A stretch of 63,829 nt of DNA, filler included, from Rhabdomonas costata (taxonomy: Eukaryota): the NCBI GenBank assembly GCA_019059605.1. It is 46 parts of 46 records of this genome, joined end to end, with 100 filler letters (N's around TTAATTAATTAA, not from the genome) between each part and the next. Parts side by side here need not be neighbours in the genome. Positions count along the whole stretch, not along the records: positions 25,008 to 26,298 come from JAHMHO010020473.1; 45 more parts are not named here. The stretch is one strand, 5' to 3'. Position numbers and translations under genes: made by a program. Shown here in pieces: positions 9,814 to 62,883 of this stretch. Each line of letters starts with the position of its first letter. The stretch's first letter is position 1. The notes below the pieces were generated by a model, which was not told the origin of the DNA, searched no databases, and saw only the letters and a list, made by a program, of their open reading frames with translations.

Positions 9814-10050
9814 CAGATAAGGATCCAAAAAGGTGCCCAAGCCCGTGCCCTAGCGAAGAGCGCCACGGACGGCGCCACGATTGGGGCTCTCCGTGGTATG
9901 AAGAGATGACCTGAGGATTCCAGGCAGAAGAAGAGTCGAGGAGAGGCCACTGAGCTCTCAGCAGGCTGGGCGAGCGCAGAGGGTTGTTCCTAGAGCCGCG
10001 GTTTAATGCACTATTGAGCTTTCCCAAGATCCTCCGCCCAGCGGCAGAGG
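9814..10050 (+). repeat. Dispersed repeat family A, copy 2
   Basis: Diverged homolog of 1020-1263; residual peptide FLEPRFNALLSFPKILRPAAE versus FLEPRINASARFLKNLRPAAE. Confidence 0.85.
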
Positions 10051-15000: not shown

Positions 15001-15267
15001 GAGAGGTTAAAATGTCTAGAATTGTAACAATACAGTTGAACGTTTGGCACCCTCACCTGCCCGCGAAGAAAACAACAGCTCCCCTTGCACTGACAGTGCT
15101 GGTATTTGCTTTTTCTTCGCGGGCAGGTGAGGGTGCCAAACGTTCAACTGTATTGTTACAACCCCCCNNNNNNNNNNNNNNNNNNNNNNNNNNNNNNNNN
15201 NNNNNNNNNNNTTAATTAATTAANNNNNNNNNNNNNNNNNNNNNNNNNNNNNNNNNNNNNNNNNNNN

Positions 15268-16200
15268 AGGGAGGCATCGACGACATCAACATCTTTTACC
15301 CCTAGAGGCTCATCGTCGCTCCCCACCATTTAAGGTGGTTCGCTCCTCTCCTCTTCACTCTTCTTCTTTCTTCACTCCTTAGGGCCCCCACGAACGCAGT
15401 GAGTGGGGTATCTGTAGAAGGTGAATGCATGTAAGCGGCTTATGCCGGTGGAATGCATGAACCATCACTTCTAGGAGGAAGGATACGAACGCAGTGAGCA
15501 TCCTGACGACCAGCTATCTACTCCACTCTGTCGGCATGCCCCTCGGTCCCTCGGGTCAGCCTCCCCTCTTCTTCTTTCTTCACTCCCAGGGCCCCACGAA
15601 CGCAGTGAGTGGGGTATCTGTAGAAGGTGAATGCATGTAAGCGGCTTATGCCGGTGGAATGCATGAACCATCACTTCTAGGAGGAGATGCGAACGCAGTG
15701 AGCATCGACGACATCAAGAACCTTAGGGGCCCCCACGAAACGCAGTGAAGTGGGGATTGCAGGAGGAGCGCAGCGACGACGTAAAGAAGTAGGAGGGACG
15801 AAACGCAGTGAGGACCGACAGGAAGAAGAAGGAAGGATGGCCGAAGCGTAGCGTAGGACATCCTGACGTCAAGGAGTGAACGAGCGTAACCGTATGCGGT
15901 GGAGCGAGTGAACCACTGCACTTCGGGAGGAAGGATGCGAGGTATCGAGCATCCTGACGACCAGCTGAATACTCCACTGAACGTCCCTTCGCTCCCCACC
16001 CTAAGGTGGTACGCTACGGTCCTCTCTCCCAACTACGTCTGCTTGGTTCGTTCCACCACCCTAAGGTGCTTTCACTCACCCCTACAACGCATCCATGGTT
16101 CGTTCCACCGGCCTAAGCCGCCTTCACTCACCCATAGAAGAGGTTGATGTTGCATGTCGGGCTCGGCGCCCTCCACTTCGCATCACTCCCTCTGTTGGGG
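15268..16200. repeat. Cluster of short hairpin modules (tandem G.A plus GNA triloop), including a ~120-bp direct repeat (15358-15479 / 15566-15685)
   Basis: CCCCAC-GA-AC-GCA-GT-GA-GTGGGG twice, GATGC-GA-AC-GCA-GT-GA-GCATC, GC-GTA-GC, GC-GCA-GC, CCACC...GGTGG; no exon-intron structure and none of the long A/T homopolymer runs seen in other contigs. Confidence 0.9.
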
Positions 16201-17358
16201 CTGACTTCGGTGGGGCTTTGGCAACCACTACCACAGTGCTACTACGGTACATGTCCTCAAGAGGGCTTACAGAGGGCTGATACACCCTATGCCTCCTGAC
16301 GGCATGTCCACAGCAACCCCTCATAGTGGCATCGACACAACATCCACACGTTGGGCTTATCGGGTTGTTACACCGTTGCCTCTGTGGGACATTACGCCAA
16401 CACCACCAGGCAGCAGTCTATGCCTTAACACAACAACATAGGTGGGCTGATGAGGCTATGACACCTGTGCCACCATGGTTGCTGTGCCAAGACGCACTAC
16501 AACAGGGCATCACCATCACTGGGCTTACAGAGTCGGGATACAACTCCTGCCACCAAGGANNNNNNNNNNNNNNNNNNNNNNNNNNNNNNNNNNNNNNNNN
16601 NNNTTAATTAATTAANNNNNNNNNNNNNNNNNNNNNNNNNNNNNNNNNNNNNNNNNNNNGGGTGTTGTGTCTCCTTCCGGTGTCGGTGTCAGTGTGGCTT
16701 CCTCCTCGCTCTCTTGGTGAGTCGGTGTGTGGCTTCTGTTGGTAGTGCTAGTGGTGGCAGGTATCCCTGGTTCGTGTGTCCGTTTGCCGAAGGAGTTGGT
16801 GCCGGGACTTGTGGTTGCTTATGTGGGTGGGTGATTGGGTTCCGTTTCTCTGTTCGCTGGTCTTGCTGTTGTGGTGTCGCTGTTGCAGTCGCTGGGATTG
16901 GTGTGTGCTGTACTTGCTGTGGGCTTCCTGCTTTCTGTTTCTCTGTGCCTTCTTGTCTCCTTTCCTCCACCAGAGGTGTGAAACCGCCAGACGCCGCTCT
17001 CTAGTTCCATCCGTCGCAGAAGCCGTTGAGATCTGCCCAGCAGTGATCCGAACGTGCATTGTCAGGTACGCCTGGCAATACGGGAACATACGGATAAGGC
17101 CACCAACACCTAGTGAGCTAAGGTCATGTGTGACCGGTGATGCAACGCCACTCAAACACATGCACCGAAGCCGACCATGGCCTAGTGTGCGCCTTCCCTT
17201 TGGGCGCTGTTGCCCTTGTGGGTTTGGGTCCTCCATTCTACTCCGAGCTTAGACGCTTTCCTGGTGGACGCGCTTGGTTACCTTACTCTGTCCCTGCTGT
17301 CATCTGGACCTCACTTCTCTCCACTTGCCCAGTCATCCCTTCATACGCACAGGCGCAC

Positions 17359-18898: not shown

Positions 18899-19723
18899 GG
18901 CGGAAATTCCGAGACCTATCGCATGGGTGGGGCTTTTTTAGAAAGTTGCCTCATTCTTCTGTTTCTCGAGCTTATTCGTGTCGTGGTATTATACTTTGGT
19001 GGGCTTAATGATGACGGAATAATTTCATCGCTCTTGTTGGTTATGCGACTGCTTTTTATGTGAAGGTGGCTTTCGTTTCTTTTGGGTTTGGGTTTGGAGT
19101 TATGATGTGTTCTGATGATTTGCTCGGCACAGAAGCAGGGTAAGGGGTTTGCTTGGAAGCCTTTTTTCTGTGGTGATGAATGGCGGCTTTCAGGTCGCCT
19201 CGGATACGTTAAGCGATGTTTTTGTAATTTTTTTTTTGGTTTGTTCGTTCCTTTGGTTTTGGCCACCGAGGAGGAACTTTTGGGGATATTTGCAGAACGC
19301 GGGGTCAACTAACGCTTTCTAACTTTCGGACAAACAAACCNNNNNNNNNNNNNNNNNNNNNNNNNNNNNNNNNNNNNNNNNNNNTTAATTAATTAANNNN
19401 NNNNNNNNNNNNNNNNNNNNNNNNNNNNNNNNNNNNNNNNAGAGCCGCTAATGGCGATGTTTTTGGGATAAAGATGCATAGGAAAGAGTAAGGAGTACAA
19501 AAGAGGAAAGTAGATTCAGGATCAATATTCATTCAGTTTAAGTCGCCTTTTCTGAACGACGCCCAATCCACACCGGCATTGTGAAAGAGAAAAGAGTGAG
19601 ATACGAGTACCGTTTCTGAATGCCTATATCTCTCAATTATCACCGGAGTTCTGTTAAAAACACTCCAGAGAGTGAGCGGAACAGCGGGAGGGGGGGGAGC
19701 GGAGCAAAGGCAAAGGTGTTCAC

Positions 19724-19996
19724 CTCCATTGGCCGAGCACGGCAATCAGCATCAACATCCCCCACGCCGCGCAGTTCCCGAATAGCACCACCCAGAAGAA
19801 CTGCGCGTCCAGCGCGTGGACGGCCTCCGCGGGGCCCGCCTCGAAGCGCCACACGCTCTGACCGTCGTCGGTGATGTCATTCCACCACCGCAGGCCAACC
19901 ATCAGCCGCCCGATGACGTTCTTCACCGTCCAGAAGTCCACCGCCACCAGCACAGTCACCACGACGAAGGTGGTCACGTAGTTCAGGGAGAACACC
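19724..19996 (-). CDS. TVP23: Golgi membrane protein TVP23 (FAM18), exon 2
   Basis: DFWTVKNVIGRLMVGLRWWN...WRFE...D..FFW is the TVP23 signature; phase-2 junction with exon 1 is consistent. Confidence 0.93.
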
Positions 19997-20175
19997 CTGC
20001 AATCCACCCATCCCGCCCAAAGACCGGGATGCAGCCCAAAGCCCACAACTTGTCATCCATATGGGGGTGGGCCTCCAACTTTCAAAGCACTAAGAAGCGT
20101 AAAAAAAAAAGCAACCGGAAGCTGAACGCCACGCAATGGCAGGCCATAGTTTGCATAAAAAGCCCGCAAGCATAC

Positions 20176-23616: not shown

Positions 23617-24880
23617 TTTTGTTGTGCATTGAGAATACGCAGGTAATAGCTCTTTTAGATTCCGGAGCTTCAGATACGTTTATAAGTCAAGAAATGGTAC
23701 AGAGATTTCGTTTGCAGATGTACCCGTTGCAGCAAAGGCTCACCGTGAGAGTAGCTAATGGAGAAGGACTCACAGTGACCCATTTTGTGAGGATTGTAGA
23801 GAAGTTGGGTACCATGACGATTAAGCTGTTCTTGAGAGTGATTCAAACTGCAATTCAAGTGGTACTGGGCTATCCGTTTTTGACGAGTCTACATCCACAG
23901 ATTGATTGGAAGCGTATTTGTACCAATGTTTGGAGAGGCGGAATGATTTACGACATTCATGCGCTTCCAGCAGTGGATTCCTTCAGAATTACGTGCCCAA
24001 CCACAGGTATTATGGAAGCTGAGCCGGAGGAAGTTGTTTCAGAGCTTCCACATATCTCTCAAGTACGGAAAGTGTCTGGGTTGTGCACCCCTGATTCCAT
24101 AGTAGCAGTGGATGAGGGAGCGGTACCTCAGACTCCGTGATTGTAACCGTTCCACATGGTGCAGAATCTCTTCCAGGGTTGATTTCAGAGGTTGTTGTTT
24201 ACGCAGTGGAGGTGGAAGAGGTCACTCCGACTAAGCAGGACCAGCAAGCCATAGCTATGGCTCAGGAGCCTAGGTGTAATGTCAAAAGGAAGTTGCGAGA
24301 TTCGCCCAGGAAGGAAGTTAAGAAGTTAATTAAGGAGGTGGACCACAGCATTTGTTGCCACCCTTGTTCTGTGTTACCGACATTTTCAGAAATCTAGAAG
24401 TTAAATCAGGAATTTTTGCACATTTTTTCAGTGTCAGTTCCCGGAGGGTTACCCCCTTCGAGGATGACAGACCACAGGATTGATTTGAAGCCGGACAGTA
24501 AGGTACCAGCCCAAAGGCTGTACCGAATGTCCCCGGCTAAAGATGAAGAATTGCGGAAGCAACTGAAGAGTCTCCAGGAGCTTGGTTTTATAGAGCCATC
24601 AACCTCGCATTATGGCGCAGTGGTGCTGTTCGTTACAAAGGCCAACGGTAAGTTGAGGCTGTGTGTGGATTACAGACCTTTGAGTGCGATCCTGTTACAG
24701 ATGCGTACCATTACACCAAATTGACTAGATGATTGATCATGCGGGAAGGCGAAGTGGTTTTCCAAACTAAATTTGCATGAGTGACTCCATCAGATCCTCA
24801 TTCATCCAGAGCATGTGGAGAGCACGGCTTTCAAGACAAAGTACGGTTCGCTCCAATTCAGAGTCATGCCTTTTGGGACC
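23617..24880 (+). mobile_element. Degenerate Ty3/Gypsy LTR retrotransposon pol fragment (aspartic protease plus N-terminal RT)
   Basis: ALLDSGASDTFIS protease motif; GLPPSR..DHRIDL, YRMSP, GFIEPSTS.YGA.VLFV.K..GKLRLCVDYR, TAFKTKYG..FRVMPFG; internal stops and frameshifts. Confidence 0.95.
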
Positions 24881-25007
24881 CACCCAACACCCAAACACAC
24901 CCACCACNNNNNNNNNNNNNNNNNNNNNNNNNNNNNNNNNNNNNNNNNNNNTTAATTAATTAANNNNNNNNNNNNNNNNNNNNNNNNNNNNNNNNNNNNN
25001 NNNNNNN

Positions 25008-26170
25008 GGGGTGTGGGTATGACCAACCTATGGTATGCTGCCATGGTAGTTGTTGTATCGCTTGTATGTTGAAGGGTAGGAGTAGAGCGTAAGGGTAGTG
25101 ACAGTGCTACGCTGATCCCTACACCTGATGCTATACCTATTCTATGGTGGTCATGGCAGTGTTGGTACCGACAGTGGTATCAGCATCTAACCCCTGTAGT
25201 GGAATGGGCGTAACACACCCTGTAACACCACGCATAAGGTTAGCATGTTGGTATGCTGATGGTGTCGATGCTGTTATGCCATCCGGTGGTCAGGGCATGG
25301 TTGATCCTGGTAGCGATGATGCCTACCGGTGTGATGCCTGATGGTGGAAGTGCCGTAGTGGAGGTCGCCGAGACCGACATGATGGTATGGATGCCTCAGT
25401 CACTCACACTCACAGCATCAACGCTTCAGAGGAACCATGCTAAGGGTGTCAGGGTGTTGGCTGTCAACCCAACCAAGGGAAGGCAAAGGCGTACGGTATG
25501 CCATGACCGTTACTCCTACGCTAGACCAAGGCTACGCGTTGACAACCACACTCAGGCAAGGTAAGGGCGTAAGGTTGACGCTGATGCAGATGTTGATGCA
25601 TATGCTGATACAGATGCTGATGCTGACACCGAACCCCTCACCTACCCCACAGCATGAACCCTACCCTACCGTAGAAGGAATGATGTGTGTGAAGTGCCAG
25701 GATGATGCCGGTGCTGGTGAGACGATGCCATGCCACCGAGAGCTGAGGCACAGGGGGACTGAGAGGGAGGCATGATCCGACCGAAGGGAGGGGCATGCCG
25801 GTATAGTGATGGTCGCATATCACTCGCTACGCTCGATCGATGCTCCCTCAATGCGTAGTTCGTCGTTCCACCGCTTCACGGCTTCACTCGTTCCGTCCTT
25901 GGCGAAGCCACGCAGAATACCCTCAGTGAGTGAAAGGTCTCACTTTGGGTTCAGCCTTGGCATCTTCCCTTCTCATGCACTTACCCTACACTTGTGGTGT
26001 GGTTCATGCTGAGGTTGGGTTCATGCCTCGTGGTGGATTGGCTCACTGGCCATCGTAAGGTCACCCTCCAACAGCATCAACGCTTGGTCTTACACACCTT
26101 CTACATGTGGTGCCAAGTGTTGACTGTGGCTGGCACACACCCGATGCCCTGTAGCCTCTCACCAGGATCT
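25008..26170. other. Compositionally distinct, intron-less DNA carrying the same G.A-hairpin elements as 15268-16559; possible organellar or extrachromosomal origin
   Basis: Shares three motifs with the 15268-16559 contig (25354-25381, 25763-25800, 25858-25889); degenerate (GATGCT)n near 25580-25626; no recognisable gene. Confidence 0.6.
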
Positions 26171-26398
26171 ACACACAACCATCATCGCGAAACAGGGACC
26201 CCTCTCAGAAGGAAGGCGCACCCAGAGCTCCACTTAAAATTGCAAAGGACAACCATCGCCATGTTCATTCCCCATCAGTTTTTGGTCGAAAAAAAACANN
26301 NNNNNNNNNNNNNNNNNNNNNNNNNNNNNNNNNNNNNNNNNNTTAATTAATTAANNNNNNNNNNNNNNNNNNNNNNNNNNNNNNNNNNNNNNNNNNNN

Positions 26399-32935: not shown

Positions 32936-33407
32936 TGATAGTAGCTGATTCAACTACTAAGCTCCCCATATCGCATCGTCACACAAATTTACGTGGTTGG
33001 ATTCCAATCCATGGAACACTTTCAGTATCTACTGATAATGTAATACGTGAGCACCATTATGGTGGTGTTAATTATGTTGCACCGATTCCAAGAGTCGCTG
33101 GTTAAACTCTGAAACTCCACACATAGTCTCGTACCACAAATGTCCGTGGTGTGATTTCAATACAGCTAGCCAACTCAGTCTCTACTAATATTGTAATCAT
33201 GGGGCACCGATGCCAAGGGTCGTGGGTTCAACTTTGAGACTTCACACACCCCCNNNNNNNNNNNNNNNNNNNNNNNNNNNNNNNNNNNNNNNNNNNNTTA
33301 ATTAATTAANNNNNNNNNNNNNNNNNNNNNNNNNNNNNNNNNNNNNNNNNNNNGGGTTGGTTGATGGGGTATTGGTTTGTTTGCTTGTTCGCTAGTATGC
33401 TTGTTTA

Positions 33408-33435
33408 TTTGTTCCACGTGTTCGCATCTTCTTCG
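33408..33435 (+). repeat. Dispersed repeat family B, copy 1
   Basis: tttgttccacgtgttcgcatcttcttcg is identical at 62856-62883; both copies follow a similar (gttt/gctt)n tract. Confidence 0.85.
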
Positions 33436-36133
33436 CCGTTTCACCGCGGTTCACATTCCCTGCCATTTCTTCTATTAGAATTTCTAAATAGAAACCACAA
33501 CTAGGGGGAGGGTCCGTTTTTGTCCCACACCCAAAATTCCGGGTTTGGGATTCTGGGATTTCGGTTGAGTGGGGTGGAGGATGGAGGCCAACACTGCAAA
33601 CAACTTAGAATTAATACGGTCTCATCACTCCCTGTCGACGGTTGCCAGCACATCACAAAATTCGTTTCCTGGGTCCAAAACCCTCCTCTTTTGCTCAAAC
33701 ACACCCTGAGATGGCTACAACCTTCTTTTCTTTACTACCCGTCCCCCCTGGGTTTTTTCTTGCCCTAGGTTTGTGGGAAATCCTCGGAAATCCACGCGCA
33801 CAAACTGCACCACAACGTCTGCAGGCTGAGGACCTCGAGCCCGCCCCCAGGGAAAGTGGCCGAAGGACCACCCCCCGCACGAACAACCCCGGGATCCGGG
33901 AAGGGACGTCCATTCTCCGCAGCTGCATGGCGGCTCTCCAGCGCAGCCACGGCGCTCTTCAACGGGTTGACCACCGCAGAGCGATGCAGGACACCCGCAG
34001 AGGGCGGGGCACGGTAAGGGCCGAGTCTGCGGGACCCTCTGAACAGAGGGAGTCCGGCACGAGGAGGACGAGGAGGAGGTGGTGGTCGTGGTGTTAGCGG
34101 CGGAAGAGGTGGTGGCGATTGGACCGTCATCCGGGGAAGGGCAGGCGGCTGGCATGTCCCGAGGGTCCTCTCCATTGCCCAAGAGAACAAATGCAGGAGT
34201 CGTGGCCACACCTGTGCAGAACACCTGCGTGCAAAGGTGCGTGCAAAGGCGGAGAAATGAAACAGGCTTTAGCAAGTAGAGCGGTAAATGTTTCGAATTG
34301 AAACTTGAATGCGGAGTCAGGATTTTTCGAAAATTTATCCCTGCTCAAACCCCCCCCCGAAAAATTATGATCCTGTAGGGAGCTGGGGCGAAATATATCA
34401 CAAAGTTCCATGATGTTGGGAGTTGACAGAAGCTTTTGCAGGACCCCCCCCCCTCATCGCGCGTCATCGGGCCAGAAGGTCGAAAGATCTTTCCTATCCA
34501 TGCTGGACACGTTTTGCTCTGACATGGTTGTGATATTTCTTCCTCGGATCCACTGCTCCCCAGAAGACAGATGACCAAAAAGTTAGGAACAGACACCGTT
34601 ACTTCGATGTAGAGACATGCACATGCAGTGGGAGAAGCATCGTNNNNNNNNNNNNNNNNNNNNNNNNNNNNNNNNNNNNNNNNNNNNTTAATTAATTAAN
34701 NNNNNNNNNNNNNNNNNNNNNNNNNNNNNNNNNNNNNNNNNNNGGGTGGGAAGATGGTTGGGGAAACAGGTGCTCCGCAATGCCCGTGGGGGTGGAGCCG
34801 TTCTCCAACCCGCAGGCATTGCGGAGCACCTGTTTCCCCAACCATCTTCCCACACGATTGCCAGCATCTCCTATGAAGGCAGCACCAGATGTTCAGTATG
34901 GCATGGTTGCATCCAAGAGCGATTCAAATGAGTGGCAAGCAGCCGCGGCAATCATGATCGCAACGGATAATCACCAAGGTTTTGACTTGGAACAAGATGA
35001 CCACGGAAAACTTTAAGCACAACAACGGCACAAATGGAAGAAATGACGACGAAGGAAAAACGAAGTGCATAGGCCCAAGACTTCCTGACAAACCAAAAAG
35101 GAACGTGCAGGACAACCCACCTACTAATCTTCTAATGGGGATTTGTGCGTTGGCCTTATTCTGATGCAGGTCATGTTCAGCCATCCAATGGCGGGCTTTT
35201 AAGTCATTGCTCCGAGTGCGTTTCGGCGCAGTTCATAATTCACGCTTCTCCATATGGCCGAGAATATGGACATTGACAAGACATTGATGGCAATTTCAAA
35301 ATGAAGCTACACCAGAAGCACTTTCCGGCACATGCAATTCAGTGTTGAAAACCAGCAACATTTCAGATTTGGGCATGCATACAGAGAGATATAAATTGAG
35401 ATGATTCCGGCCTGACAAGTACGAGAATGGACACAAGTGTTGCGGCAAACCTTCAGACGGGCCAAGAGATGCCGGAGCAACGCACGCTGATGTACCCCAG
35501 GAGCCATTTGCTGGTAACAAGGAAATGTCTACATCAACAGCAACACAGAAATCAGAGGGAAACAAGCTTTGCACTGCGCTGCAAGAAAAGTAACCAAACG
35601 TTCTCACGAAACCCCATTCATGAAACTCCACACCCACACCTACGCTGTGACGCAACTCACTTTAGACACTTGCATTAGTGCGCTTGCGTTCAGAAGAACG
35701 TCCAGATAGAGCGCAGATACAGTATAACACAAAAATACAGTACGGTCGTGCGCCTACTCCCTAACAAGCCTTCTAGAACTTCATTTCGTATCAATAGAAC
35801 AGAATCCTATGTCCTGGGAAGGCTTCATGACCCCCTGAGCTGCCTCGTCCACATGAGCTGTTTTGTCATTCGCTACAGCGTGGCCAGGGTTGAAAAGTAT
35901 GGATTCCGGGTGTATGGTCCAACTTAGTATTTAGCATGGAGCGGACGAGCACATTCCCTTCCTTCCCTTCCACTGACACGACCGCTGTTGCGCTGTTTCC
36001 TCAGCCAGAAATCCTCCGAGCTTCACCAAAAAANNNNNNNNNNNNNNNNNNNNNNNNNNNNNNNNNNNNNNNNNNNNTTAATTAATTAANNNNNNNNNNN
36101 NNNNNNNNNNNNNNNNNNNNNNNNNNNNNNNNN

Positions 36134-37423: not shown

Positions 37424-39363
37424 NNNNNNNNNNNNNNNNNNNNNNNNNNNNNNNNNNNNNNNNNNNNTTAATTAATTAANNNNNNNNNNNNNNNNNNNNN
37501 NNNNNNNNNNNNNNNNNNNNNNNTTGTGGTGGTCGTGATTCTGGAACCCTCCGCCCCATTTTATTTGCCAAGACCCCAAACATGCGAAGGCAATGTTAGC
37601 GCGTAAAAGGGTTCCAGAATCACGACCACCCTGCAAAGGTCCAGGTCACAAAGGTGTTCCTCATTACAGAGGTAGACAGCCTCAAGGTGTTTCCAGAGAC
37701 TAGTTTCCAGAGGTTTCATAGAGATTCCAGAGAGCCGACAAGGTGAGCCAGCTCATGGCCAACGCTATGTCAGGCTACCTATCCACAGCTGGGAGAGAGA
37801 GCAGAGCAGAGAAGGTCCAGGTGAGAAACGGATGGCCGATAGAGTGACAGTGGTGAAACACACCGGGTGAGACAGAGAGCCAGGCCACGGGATGGAGGCC
37901 GCATGGAAGGGGAATGCGTGCACACGACCCGACTGCGGCGATTCAGGTGGTATGTTTTCGGAGTTTTTCAGAGGAAGAAGGATGCATCCACAGCGTTTTC
38001 CAGAGTTTTCACAGGAGAAAGAGACAAGAAGACCGAGATTTCAGAAGATTTGTTTTACAGACGAGGCCTCAGCAGATGCAGGCGGAGAACACGGACAGTG
38101 TGGTGCGTTACACAGGGGCAGTTTGAAAGGTGATGGTCCCTTCTTTTGTCCAGGATTTCAAAATTTACGTTAGGTGTTGAAGAAATCCAAAACGTCGTCA
38201 GGTCGTTTGTTTTCCAGAGTGTTTTTCTCGTTGCTTTTCGACTTGTGTTGTTACAGAGGTGCCCTAAAAGAACTACAGCAGAGCCGCAGGCCAGAGCCGA
38301 TCGGATACCAGGAGGGCCCTGCAGAGGGTACAGATGGGAGGTGAGATGCACGTGTGGCTCTGGGGGGGCTGCTCTGGACACAGGTGTGGTCGAATTGTCT
38401 GGCCTTAGGGCTCACACCTTCTGGGCTGTGGAGTGGTTCCGCTTGGCGGGTCTCGCCGCTTATGCGTTTCCACGATCTCACAACCAAAGCGAAGGATGTG
38501 TAAGGGGCACACGACTGCACACACCCTGTGTAACTCTGCAGCGTTTCTATCCCCAGCACGCTCTGCAAACCCACCCCCATTCATTTGCAAATGCTGTGCC
38601 CCAAAAGGTTTCCAGATTCCAAACCGGCTTGGTGAAGGCAAGTGGCCGGCCACCCACCCCACAATTTCAGAAAGGCGACGCTCGAGGAAAGCAGCTCCAC
38701 AGCGACCCAGGGTTAGTGAAGAAGGGAAGCCACTGTCTAGGTGAGAGTCACCTAGGTAAGTCGGGGCAGCGCTAACCTTGTGCAAGCAAGGTCGTGATAC
38801 AGTCCAACGCAACNNNNNNNNNNNNNNNNNNNNNNNNNNNNNNNNNNNNNNNNNNNNTTAATTAATTAANNNNNNNNNNNNNNNNNNNNNNNNNNNNNNN
38901 NNNNNNNNNNNNNTGTTGGGATAATGATACTGTCGATGTTTGTATTCAGCCTCCTATCGATTTTGGACATCCAGCTATATCAGCTACCACATCACGTGTT
39001 GTGCGCAGCAAAGGGCTCTGAGGACTCTCGCCCTTTCTGCAATGAAATCGAAGGCGAACACAAGGCGGCGCCGAATGTCCTTGGGAATGTCAGACACCAC
39101 AGAACGTGTTCACATATGCTCACACACTTATCCTGCAGAATCCAGAGACTCGAAGCACTTGCAAAAGCAACACTCCCGAGAACCAACGCGAGTACCGTGG
39201 ATATCGTTGAGCACACCCACAACCTAGCAGATCTGCAGGGTCAGACCGATGGCGACCTGTGATGAAGGCAAAGGTCCGTCACAAATCACAGACATCAACC
39301 CAACGCACATCCAGACATGCACCTAATTTTCGAGTTAAACAATGGGACCGCGATTTTTGTTAG

Positions 39364-39530
39364 GTTTGAGGAGGCCTACCGCAGCGCTCCTCCCCGGGAC
39401 GCCGGGGGGCGCCCCTCGCACCCCGGTGACTGGCTGTGCTCCGCCTGCGGTGCCTCCAACTTTGCCCGGCGTTCGGAGTGCTACAGCTGTGGTGCCCCAG
39501 GAGGAGGGGGCCCGGCCCCGATGATGGGAG
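39364..39530 (+). CDS. RanBP2-type zinc-finger RNA-binding protein exon
   Basis: PGDWLCSACGASNFARRSECYSCGAP fits W-x-C-x2-C-x3-N-x6-C-x2-C; ag|...GGAG|gtctgc. Confidence 0.92.
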
Positions 39531-39849
39531 GTCTGCTATCTGCCCACCTCCTCACCGGTTCTCTCCTTGTCTCTGGGAATTGCACTGTTGCTCGTGGCAG
39601 GTCCCGACCTCTCCACACTTTGCTCCGGTTCACTGCAGAGCCCCCCCCCCGCAAGAATGATGGCTTTGGCCAAAGGTTCACAGCCGCATTCACACCCTGC
39701 CGCAAGAACGGCCCATCCCACCTCCACGTACACACGTGGGTGCTCAGACATGGGCAATCGCTTTTAATGTGCAAGACAACTTGTAATGTTTGAGGTCTTC
39801 TGTCTTTTCTCTCATGGACAGAGCAGTCTGTCTCTCGTCTTTGTGGTAG

Positions 39850-56600: not shown

Positions 56601-58547
56601 TTGCATGTTTCCCATTTTCAGAGAACGGATGCTGCGGATGAGCAGGATCAAGGAGATTGTCGCAATCTTCGTTGCTGCGAGCTTCCACTCCCTGAATTAG
56701 GTGCTGTCTAAGCTTTTTCTTCACCTCGCTGTTTGTTTGTTTGTTGTTGTGTGTGAACTGCCGCGGAGCCAAACGCAGAGACCGGACGACAGGCCACAAG
56801 TCCGCAACATTGGGCTATACTACCTCCGTCAGGCCTTGGTCCTTGTGACCGGCTTTGATTGGATGCCGTAACCCCCCCCCCNNNNNNNNNNNNNNNNNNN
56901 NNNNNNNNNNNNNNNNNNNNNNNNNTTAATTAATTAANNNNNNNNNNNNNNNNNNNNNNNNNNNNNNNNNNNNNNNNNNNNGTGTGGGTGTGTTTGGGTT
57001 GTTGTGGAAGTTACTGGCGCTTGAGGGACAGGGCACAAAGTCAGCATGTGTGTTCCAGAGAAGCAGGAGAATTTGGGTCGCCAAAAGCGGAATCAAGCTT
57101 GGCAGCCTCATTCTCTCTATTGTTCCTTAAAGAGCTGCGAAGGAGGGAAGTAGCAAGGTTCAAGAAAGCGTTCGCGAGAAAGGAGGTACGCTGCTTGGCA
57201 CAAGAACCGTATCACACTGGCACTGCAGTGACACTCGATTAAGGAGTGACCTCAAACACCACACCATTGTCAAACATCAAGGGCCGCGGAGCATCCTGGA
57301 GAAAAAACACCCCATCCACATCGGAAAGGCTTGCCGTAATACATACCTAGCCGTTTTTTCTTCAGATTGATACATACAGCAGGCATTTAAATAGAGTAAA
57401 AACATTTCAAATGGAAACCTGTCTCATACCAAGGTGTGACAGAAACCCAAACTACGCCTCACGGGAAGCGTTTCCACTGAGCACGAGCCATATGCCATGC
57501 CTTTACTGGGTGGGGCAAAAAAACTGGCAGAGTGAATTTCATTTGGAGAATATGCGCGAAACACGAATCCAATCCTCCGGAAGTCTGAAGTGCTTTTTTT
57601 GTTTTTCAACCTCTGTTTTGAAACGAGACACATAAATGTGTATAACACGCCATATACATATATACACGCATAAATACACGCATATCTGCGTGCGCATATC
57701 TCCCCAAGAAGACGAAAAGTTAACCAAATTCGCGAACGTTCTTCAGAATCGGAAACCACTGCTTGCAGGAAGCAGCGCATTCTCAAGTGGTCCAATGTGG
57801 TCCAAGTGGTCCACTCCAGTGGTCCAATGTAACATCCCTGGCGTCTGCTTAGGGATCAATGGTCTTTTTAGCCCTTTCCTTCTGGAGCAAAAGAGAAACG
57901 AACTACACGAAATAGGTTCTCTACATAGCGTCTTCCGAGGTGCCAGCACTTGAACGGGCAGCACCCGAACAGTGGAAGAAAAACAGCACCAATCACCTCA
58001 CGCAAACCCACACACAAACTCGTATCATGGAAGACGCCAGTAAACGGAAAGCCGCTTCGGACCGATTCGCGCGGACACACGTACTTACACCGTACAGAAA
58101 AGGCTGAAAATCTTAGCTTCTGCAAACGAAAGAATTACCGTACAACTATGGGATACCAACCCGTGAGGGCACAGCAGTAGTACGCGGCTCGATGAACACA
58201 ACTCACTGCTACTACCCGTATTTCAATATCCCCAAAAAAGTGAGACCAGAGACAAACCCACACACCAACAANNNNNNNNNNNNNNNNNNNNNNNNNNNNN
58301 NNNNNNNNNNNNNNNTTAATTAATTAANNNNNNNNNNNNNNNNNNNNNNNNNNNNNNNNNNNNNNNNNNNNGTTTTTTGGGCATGCTCTGCTCTCGTCGT
58401 TCTCATCTAACACAGGTTGGTGTTTGCTAGCGAACACCAACCTGTGTTAGATGAGAACGACGAGAGCAGAGCATGCCCGGAAAAAGCAGGGAGGCAACCA
58501 ATCCAACTTTCCGTAAAGCAACACAGGGTCCCGAGGGCAACAGAGAC

Positions 58548-61522: not shown

Positions 61523-62855
61523 TGTTTGTTTTGTTTGGGGGTCTCCTGGATGGACAAAGGGAGTTGAATGCCCCGCTGCAAAAAAAGAAGAAAAAAAGGA
61601 AACCCACAAACCACACCCCAAGGAAAAACGGCGAGACACTGCTTCTTCCTGGTAGACTAGAGATCCCACACCGGGGGGGGGGGGAGCGGGAGAATCTAGG
61701 ACCCTACCCACAAGATTAGAGTGGATGTCTTTGACGCACTTATGCCTTTTTACCGAAAACAAATTTGCAATTTTCTTTGGTAAATTGGCATTTAAAGTGA
61801 CGCCACCCCACCTACTCCCAAAACAAGCCAAAGCTTCTCAATATTGCAGAATCACACCAAGCGAACATGGCACCACGTCCAAAACCAAAGAACTACTTAC
61901 AACCAAAACTGCCTGGTCTTCAACCCTGAGACAGACACACTTGGGAGGAAAACCATAAAACATCACTGCATTTATGGGGACGAACCTCCATGCAATTTAA
62001 CTTGACAATGCTTTGCTTTTTGTTTTTTTTCTTTGGAAAATGTGCCTGCGTTGTTTGGTGTGTTTATGTTTCCCAATCACTTGCACTGAACCCCCACCAC
62101 CACCACCCGCCCGCACATTTTCTTTCCTCTCCTCGGACGCGCTGCCTTTCATATTGTTCCTCACCCTCACACTTCCCACCCTGCCACAAATGATCCCACC
62201 AATTAAATAAGACAAAATAGTGTTTTCACTGACCTATGATGGGAACCCTCACAGAACGACTTGGACGAAGAGATGGGAGCCACCTGCCATCGGGCACTCG
62301 GGCACTCGCGCGGCGTACTTGGGAATCGTGGGAGTCAACATCCGACATTGCACTTTTCCCGTTTCGCTTTTGCATTCAGCATGGCAACATTGCTGGGAAC
62401 GTTGGCGATGGCCATGCTTCAGATTGACAACAACACACANNNNNNNNNNNNNNNNNNNNNNNNNNNNNNNNNNNNNNNNNNNNTTAATTAATTAANNNNN
62501 NNNNNNNNNNNNNNNNNNNNNNNNNNNNNNNNNNNNNNNGTTGTGGGGGTCGGTTTCACACTCACAACCATGTTCAGCCCTGGGTCGTTGTGTCGGATTG
62601 GGGTTCGCGTTTAGGTCACACTCGCTTGTTGGACTCCTTCGCCCTTTCCGGGACCGCTCCTTTATAGCTTTATAGCCCCGTAAAATGGGTTAAGTTTACC
62701 TTTGATTACTTGAAATTATCAGCAAAAGTACCGGCGATAGCATCTGCTGGCAATCTCTTTAAGGTGAGTATGTCACAACATTGATGTCACGAAATTCAAA
62801 AGATTGGCAGGTTGGTTTGGGGTTTGGATCGTTTGCTTGTTTGCTTGCTTGTGTG

Positions 62856-62883
62856 TTTGTTCCACGTGTTCGCATCTTCTTCG
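62856..62883 (+). repeat. Dispersed repeat family B, copy 2
   Basis: 28/28 identical to 33408-33435. Confidence 0.85.

Follow-up and report, generated by a model that had tools for sequence, protein, structure and literature searches.

The stretch of DNA analysed here, referred to below as the window, is 63,829 bases long and does not represent a single locus, being composed of 46 separate contigs of 1,263–1,294 bp (~1.29 kb) each that are joined by N44-TTAATTAATTAA-N44 spacers. No long ORF was found in any of the 46 contigs, and no tRNA across the whole window. Among the 134 window ORFs of at least 110 aa, four matched Pfam, three of them above the curated cut-off, and all four matches are eukaryote-typical:

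19723–20052 (−), DUF846
39266–39790 (+), RanBP-type zinc finger
23619–24137 (+), retroelement aspartyl protease
NAP, in a window ORF, sub-threshold match

The DUF846 exon had only four relatives in a large protein collection, at 49–57% identity, and a PPR-like ORF of the window returned no protein matches. The aspartyl protease frame is part of a decayed Ty3/gypsy-like retroelement piece (23617–24907), where it is followed by the start of a stop-interrupted reverse-transcriptase-like frame. Microsatellite-like translations are frequent in the window, which contains CA/GA microsatellites. By its content the window consists of fragments of a eukaryote-like assembly, and its contigs were not recovered from the viral, genome or metagenome collections searched. 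Three contigs, c43 (58373–58484), c11 (15022–15161) and c26 (34746–34853), carry at one contig end an inverted repeat of 45–56 nt that is 95–100% complementary; these fold-back structures could be genuine hairpin termini or could have arisen as artefacts during assembly or amplification. Additionally, repeats are common to c1 and c8 (1108–1262 and 9872–10050; 33 nt at 97% plus 128 nt at 81%) and to c25 and c46 (33398–33435 and 62846–62883; 38 nt, 95%).

The hairpin motifs that are the subject of this work lie on two further contigs, both non-coding. A previous sequence-only reading had described them as shared between unlinked contigs, and c12 and c19 are indeed separate contigs in the window:

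15268–16559, contig c12, sense strand (−), 55.4% GC, non-coding
25008–26298, contig c19, sense strand (+), 53.4% GC, non-coding

Composition sets this pair apart, since c12 and c19 are mutual best tetranucleotide partners (r 0.49; next best 0.13–0.15) and their observed/expected ratios for TpA are 0.81 and 0.84, against mostly 0.3–0.7 in the other contigs. c19 and the reverse strand of c12 have 38 9-mers in common, whereas controls share 10.5 on average and 20 at the 95th percentile. The best local alignment of the two contigs, between 25823–25904 and 15949–15866 (−), is gapped, shows ~70% identity over 85 nt and contains motif 3; its score is 50, whereas controls averaged 24 (sd 3.9) and did not exceed 33. 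Likewise, three ungapped 28-mers between the contigs reach 20–25 identities out of 28, and motif 1, at 25/28, exceeds the best 28-mer of every control (18–23, maximum 23/28). These controls were 176 comparisons of c12 or c19 with each of the 44 other contigs on both strands.

The order of motif 1, motif 2 and the motif 3 unit is shared by both contigs, as is their relative orientation (c19 +, c12 −). A colinear chain could be drawn through 11 exact anchors and scored 101, whereas 176 control comparisons averaged 49 (sd 11) and peaked at 86. This statistic is built on 8-mers and noisy, as the one control at 86 illustrates. Between the islands, the contigs align no better than shuffled sequences, with z = 1.3 upstream of motif 1, z = 0.9 after motif 2 and z = 2.8 in the interval from motif 1 to motif 2. 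The similarity of c12 and c19 is confined to islands and is above chance, and the best-supported reading takes them for diverged copies of a single long element, paralogous or possibly orthologous. The earlier statement that the flanking sequence does not align holds upstream of motif 1 and after motif 2, and fails around motif 3, which sits in the alignable unit of 85 nt.

Motif 1 had been reported from 25354–25381 and the reverse complement of 16153–16180, and the two sequences are identical at 25 of 28 positions, as described. Its two copies, and a hairpin that adjoins the c19 copy, are as follows:

25350–25388 (+), motif 1, c19 copy: predicted GUG-GA-GGUC-GCCGA-GACC-GA-CAU hairpin with a 7-bp outer helix; covariance model score 54.8 bits
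16147–16186 (−), motif 1, c12 copy: predicted hairpin with GGGC/GCCC and a 5-bp outer helix; covariance model score 56.6 bits
25390–25419 (+), GATGC-loop-GCATC hairpin directly after motif 1 of c19; its stem is that of hairpin 1 of the c12 units

The predicted fold of both copies is GUG / GA / GGNC-GCCGA-GNCC / GA / CAU, with 3-bp and 4-bp helices flanking a symmetric tandem G·A loop and with a pentaloop as cap. This hairpin survives one T-A to G-C swap between the copies and also retains the GA/GA internal loop, in agreement with the sequence-only reading; the outer helix that extends it differs in sequence from one copy to the other. As sense-strand RNA, the c19 copy was predicted to fold at −18.8 kcal/mol (z −4.27), with none of 200 shuffles as good, and the c12 copy at −17.2 kcal/mol (z −2.50), with three of 200 shuffles as good. 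The corresponding values for opposite-strand RNA were −5.9 kcal/mol (z +0.55) for c19 and −13.1 kcal/mol (z −1.05) for c12. With DNA parameters the sense strands yielded −4.0 kcal/mol (z −0.24) in c19 and −6.5 kcal/mol (z −0.49) in c12, and neither strand was exceptional (z −0.2 to −0.5), although such parameters may undervalue tandem G·A. The strongest element of the pair is motif 1, whose predicted stability is restricted to RNA and to the sense strand.

Each of the two contigs has a single copy of motif 1 and of motif 2, and both motifs are absent from the other 44 contigs, as judged by a mismatch search and, for motif 1, also by a covariance model. Run unfiltered on the window, that model recovered only the two parent copies, the next hit having 10 bits and an E value of 1.2. 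A K-turn was considered for motif 1 and dropped, as the predicted fold is without a 3-nt bulge plus closing pair.

We found a 24-mer of motif 1 at six loci of genome_contigs, in bacterial coding DNA. In 1596–3596 of L003, from a Bauldia sp. MAG, and in four similar loci, a gene of 666 aa encodes the peptide YVEVAEPDMH with nearly the 24 bases of motif 1, a match that shows how easily a GC-rich 24-mer recurs. We rejected the possibility that motif 1 is a coding remnant: the similarity ends within at most 40 nt, the two differences between c12 and c19 would alter amino acids, and we regard the bacterial match as due to chance. A looser, stem-free pattern of motif 1 matched 20 metagenome loci, with at most two of four stem positions complementary and with dissimilar flanks.

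The similarity reported for motif 2 is also real, 28 of 41 columns being invariant between 25763–25802 and the reverse complement of 15530–15569, and the copies have in common the exact 13-mer GAGGGGCATGCCG plus a 5′ block:

25763–25802 (+), motif 2, c19 copy: predicted hairpin closed by GGCAUG/CAUGCC; −17.1 kcal/mol, z −3.07, 0 of 200 shuffles as good
15530–15569 (−), motif 2, c12 copy: same frame, weaker predicted fold; −11.5 kcal/mol, z −0.48, 61 of 200 shuffles as good

An inverted inner stem had been proposed for this motif. We find it unsupported, because the c12 copy folds no better than shuffled sequences and has, in its 5′ arm, a one-base deletion that is uncompensated.

Motif 3, described as a hairpin within conserved borders, is present at the three positions named for it, with TCGTTCCACC exact at 25863, 16048 and 16100. 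It does not stand as an isolated hairpin, since it sits in a repeat unit whose best partner lies on the other strand of c12. The unit is ~90–100 nt long and is reiterated, with variation, five to six times in c12:

25805–25910 (+), sole c19 copy of the repeat unit, containing motif 3: hairpin between TTCCAC and CTTCAC, from a multiple alignment
15285–15961 (−), five tandem variable units of c12, each beginning G(T/A)CGTC
16028–16131 (+), two 52-bp tandem copies of the motif 3 hairpin module, 79% identical, with stems CACC/GGTG and CGGC/GCCG
15391–15811 (−), six hairpin loops of c12: TCACTGCGTTCG exact in four, plus two near copies

Read from the sequence, the c12 units start at 15961, 15870, 15780, 15712 and 15510, and a sixth that begins at 15284 is cut off by the contig end; the array includes a 97-nt duplicate (15383–15479 and 15589–15685) that is 99% identical. 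The two copies at 16028–16131 (+) represent the same hairpin module, inverted relative to the c12 units. The hairpins of motif 3 are short (3–4 bp) and weak, with predicted energies of −3.5 to −11.7 kcal/mol (z −0.2 to −2.2), and are flanked by the imperfect direct repeats TTCCAC and CTTCAC, with copy-specific extensions such as CATGCATTC. The six loops of the TCACTGCGTTCG type in c12 are closed by two unrelated stems, of the GATGC/GCATC type and CCCCAC/GTGGGG, a hint that what is kept is the loop sequence together with any helix.

The sequence-only reading had named, as an outcome that would speak against it, that the motifs might be pieces of one long ordinary repeat. This is partly what we observe, motif 3 belonging to a reiterated unit and all motifs being colinear; conservation is nevertheless patchy and limited to islands.

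Compensatory base changes had been claimed for these stems. They are present, in one pair of motif 1 and two of motif 3, and remain below significance, to which must be added the uncompensated deletion of motif 2. In motif 1, six of seven pairs are invariant and one is changed on both sides (T-A to G-C); in a shuffle control 250 of 500 replicates were as good, a comparison that is powerless with two sequences. Among five distinct copies of the motif 3 hairpin, two pairs are changed on both sides (CGGC/GCCG vs CACC/GGTG), which 30 of 500 shuffles equalled, and the outermost pair is unpaired in three of the five. Taking motifs 1 and 3 together, all three of the differing stem pairs are changed on both sides and none on one side only. 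The direction of these changes fits a maintained helix, although three events are no test, and the covariation is without statistical weight because there are only two copies and no outside relative was found. These counts do not demonstrate that structure rather than sequence is conserved: the sequence itself is identical at 25 of 28 positions, and the three pair changes do not beat the controls.

A strand asymmetry accompanies the islands. In folding predictions over 200-nt windows, the mean z was −1.52 for c12 (−) vs −0.57 for c12 (+), and −1.13 for c19 (+) vs −0.20 for c19 (−), with four control contigs at −0.55 to +0.70. Over longer stretches, 821 nt of c12 (−) gave z −2.45 and 781 nt of c19 (+) gave z −0.58, with five of 20 shuffles as good. 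Short words show the same bias: GATGC occurs 13 and 8 times on the two sense strands, vs 1.39 expected, and 4 and 2 times on the antisense strands, and TGATG, with ~1.3 expected, occurs 12 and 7 times on the sense strands and is far rarer on the opposite ones. c19 also contains a tract with a 12-nt period, GATGCTGATGCA-like or (GATGCT)n, at 25580–25623, or 25576–25632 as delimited in the plasmid and phage comparison.

Searches for coding content returned no Pfam domain above cut-off in the standard-code ORFs of the pair, none at cut-off in 55 ORFs of at least 35 aa read with TGA as Trp, and none in 56 ORFs read with TAA/TAG as Gln (code 6). Reading under either alternative code leaves many frames open and gains no Pfam domain, and both codes were set aside. 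Spurious ORFs from c12 and c19, two in all, had no matches in protein space. No Rfam family reached its gathering score in the whole window, and with E values up to 5 the two contigs produced only mir-1910 (16.3 bits, cut-off 70) and SNORD56 (18.6, cut-off 36). Outside relatives were equally lacking among the collections searched: patterns matched 0, 0, 7 and 120 loci of viral_contigs, the last pattern being too loose, and revealed no relative; BLAST of c12 and c19 against these 127 loci gave matches of at most 34 nt with E 0.002 or worse; and blastn against plasmids and phages returned either nothing or only the (GATGCT)n tract of c19, which matches plasmid and phage records as low-complexity repeats of the Asp/Ala type. 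Short words of 12–13 nt matched only unrelated primer lists in the accessible portions of the literature.

Scanning of window ORFs revealed no domain of a transposase, HUH or primase type. Neither terminal inverted repeats nor target duplications could be clearly recognised. Self-comparison in reverse complement scored 35 for c12 and 24 for c19, vs a window mean of 45, with no long palindrome; the longest inverted pairs in the two contigs are 21–22 nt at 73–81%.

These comparisons establish the homology of c12 and c19, the island pattern, the common order and orientation of the islands and the strand specificity of the predicted stability. As an explanation we tentatively favour, at a little less than an even chance, that both contigs are diverged copies of a non-coding region that is built of repeats, is transcribed and contains RNA hairpin signals; of this we infer the transcription, the recognition by protein and the function. 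The two contigs would be copies of one such region, at least ~750 nt long, from a DNA compartment with a composition unlike the rest of the assembly, and most of the sequence would have drifted past alignment, leaving motif 1, motif 2 and the ~90–100-nt unit of motif 3 as islands. Transcription would proceed from the c19 (+)/c12 (−) strand, and motif 1, less surely motif 2, would be a short RNA hairpin signal read by a protein, with a putative role in processing, end protection or similar. The unit hairpins may represent a weaker version of such a signal, present in several copies.

The islands of identity could also stem from recent exchange between repeats, and not from selection. The two contigs might be an inert complex satellite or dispersed repeat, whose islands are patches of recent gene conversion or recombination and whose matched arms are a by-product in DNA of palindrome repair, a process by which matched arms in DNA palindromes can also arise. 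In favour of this, the variable units of c12 clearly form a tandem array, the hairpin modules are found in either orientation, dispersed repeats exist on other contigs as well and covariation is not significant. We nevertheless consider this unlikely. The predicted fold of motif 1 relies on tandem G·A and on a G·U pair, with stability confined to one strand, and the word and folding asymmetries favour the same strand in both contigs; a process acting on DNA palindromes would be symmetric, and the one-strand bias therefore counts against it.

Rather unlikely, in our estimation, is that the contigs come from a Cladophorales-like green alga as low-molecular-weight plastid hairpin plasmids without genes (‘empty’), with motifs 1 and 2 as replication or expression motifs acting on single-stranded DNA. 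The GC content, the distinct 4-mer signature (r 0.49 vs at most 0.15 for other partners) and the size scale fit the published description of these plasmids, as do islands of 28 and ~38 nt with a conserved orientation. Against it, inverted repeats that are long or terminal are missing from both contigs, no plastid gene family was found among the 134 window ORFs and no domain in the 56 code-6 ORFs, and motif 1 is not predicted to be stable as DNA.

The spacers of rDNA are GC-rich, contain tandem sub-repeats, are transcribed from one strand and evolve rapidly between short conserved structured islands. If c12 and c19 were intergenic or external transcribed spacer sub-repeats, as two variants or parts of one spacer, their hairpins would be processing or termination signals, and the tandem units, the strand-specific folding and the distinct composition would all fit. 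We regard this as quite unlikely, given that no rRNA was detected on either contig (E up to 5) or in the window and that nothing ties the pair to rDNA, although each contig covers only 1.29 kb.

The sequence-only reading had suggested short non-autonomous mobile hairpins, each inserted into unrelated sequence by an independent event and moved by a HUH endonuclease or recombinase encoded elsewhere. The motif 3 module does occur in both orientations with imperfect direct repeats flanking its hairpin, and no alignment is obtained in the flanks of motifs 1 and 2. However, motifs 1 and 2 are single in each contig, fixed in order and orientation and absent from the other 44 contigs, which argues against mobile mini-hairpins. 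Motif 3, moreover, lies inside an alignable unit, and the window provided neither clear terminal inverted repeats and target site duplications nor a transposase-like, HUH or primase domain, so that we consider such mobility very improbable. Chance resemblance of two GC-rich, low-complexity sequences is scarcely credible, despite the six bacterial coding loci with the 24-mer of motif 1 and the 20 metagenome loci with its looser form, none of these 20 having complementary stem positions throughout, because the window controls for 9-mers, local alignment, 28-mers and colinear chains were all exceeded and there are several independent islands in one orientation.

For the compartment from which c12 and c19 come, the closest described parallel that we found is the plastid genome of the Cladophorales, compared by its published description. 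The accessible part of that description (Del Cortona et al., bioRxiv 10.1101/145037) reports hairpin plasmids of Boodlea composita as contigs of 1–7 kb with 54–60% GC (51–59% in Ernodesmis), which were binned apart from nuclear DNA by their 4-mers and contain many small inverted repeats; a large number of the plasmids lack genes. It also reports six conserved motifs of 20–35 bp, in fixed orientation within variable non-coding DNA, that are found as well on about 1,966 gene-less reads and are thought to act in replication or expression (bioRxiv 10.1101/145037). As far as this partial account extends, c12 and c19 resemble such plasmids as GC-rich, gene-less molecules on a ~1-kb scale, with short motifs in the same orientation in otherwise dissimilar DNA, many small inverted repeats and a 4-mer signature apart from the rest of the DNA. 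They differ by being without a long or terminal palindrome, which a collapsed assembly could hide; by the lack of plastid genes in the window, a weak difference with only 46 small contigs; and by a motif 1 that is predicted to be stable as RNA, not as DNA.

One can go further and propose that c12 and c19 derive from gene-less, GC-rich, extrachromosomal or organellar single-stranded molecules akin to the Cladophorales hairpin plasmids, whose strand-specific set of replication or transcript-processing signals would comprise motif 1, motif 2 and the surplus of UGAUGC on the sense strand. We hold this to be decidedly unlikely; if true, it would offer the first handle, in sequence and structure, on the replication and processing signals of such molecules. 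Should motif 1 prove to function on many molecules as a conserved signal, in RNA or in single-stranded DNA, it would provide a compact and testable recognition element in a poorly known eukaryote, and might mark an unusual genome compartment. The main use of the pair is to seed searches, for which the covariance model and the word signature of GATGC are suited.

Organelle genomes of chlamydomonadalean algae (Haematococcus, Stephanosphaera) contain, in the accessible parts of their descriptions, GC-rich palindromic repeats that are near-identical (80% or more) and very numerous (PMC7235400; PMC6205361). With these, so described, c12 and c19 share a GC content of ~50% or more and short hairpin repeats that build non-coding DNA and fragment short-read assemblies; they differ in being alike in short islands only, with motifs on two of 46 contigs and not in many near-identical copies. 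Sub-repeats of rDNA spacers resemble the pair in their tandem variable units, RNA structure on one strand and conserved islands in fast-evolving sequence, and differ in that no rRNA gene was found on c12 or c19. MITEs and other non-autonomous hairpin elements have in common with the pair short hairpin modules, some in both orientations, and short flanking direct repeats. Unlike MITEs, the motifs of c12 and c19 are without defined termini and without a near-identical multi-copy family, and their order is fixed; defined terminal inverted repeats with a target duplication in unrelated contexts are likewise not seen. c12 and c19 are best filed with hairpin-rich, modular non-coding repeats that have conserved motif islands.
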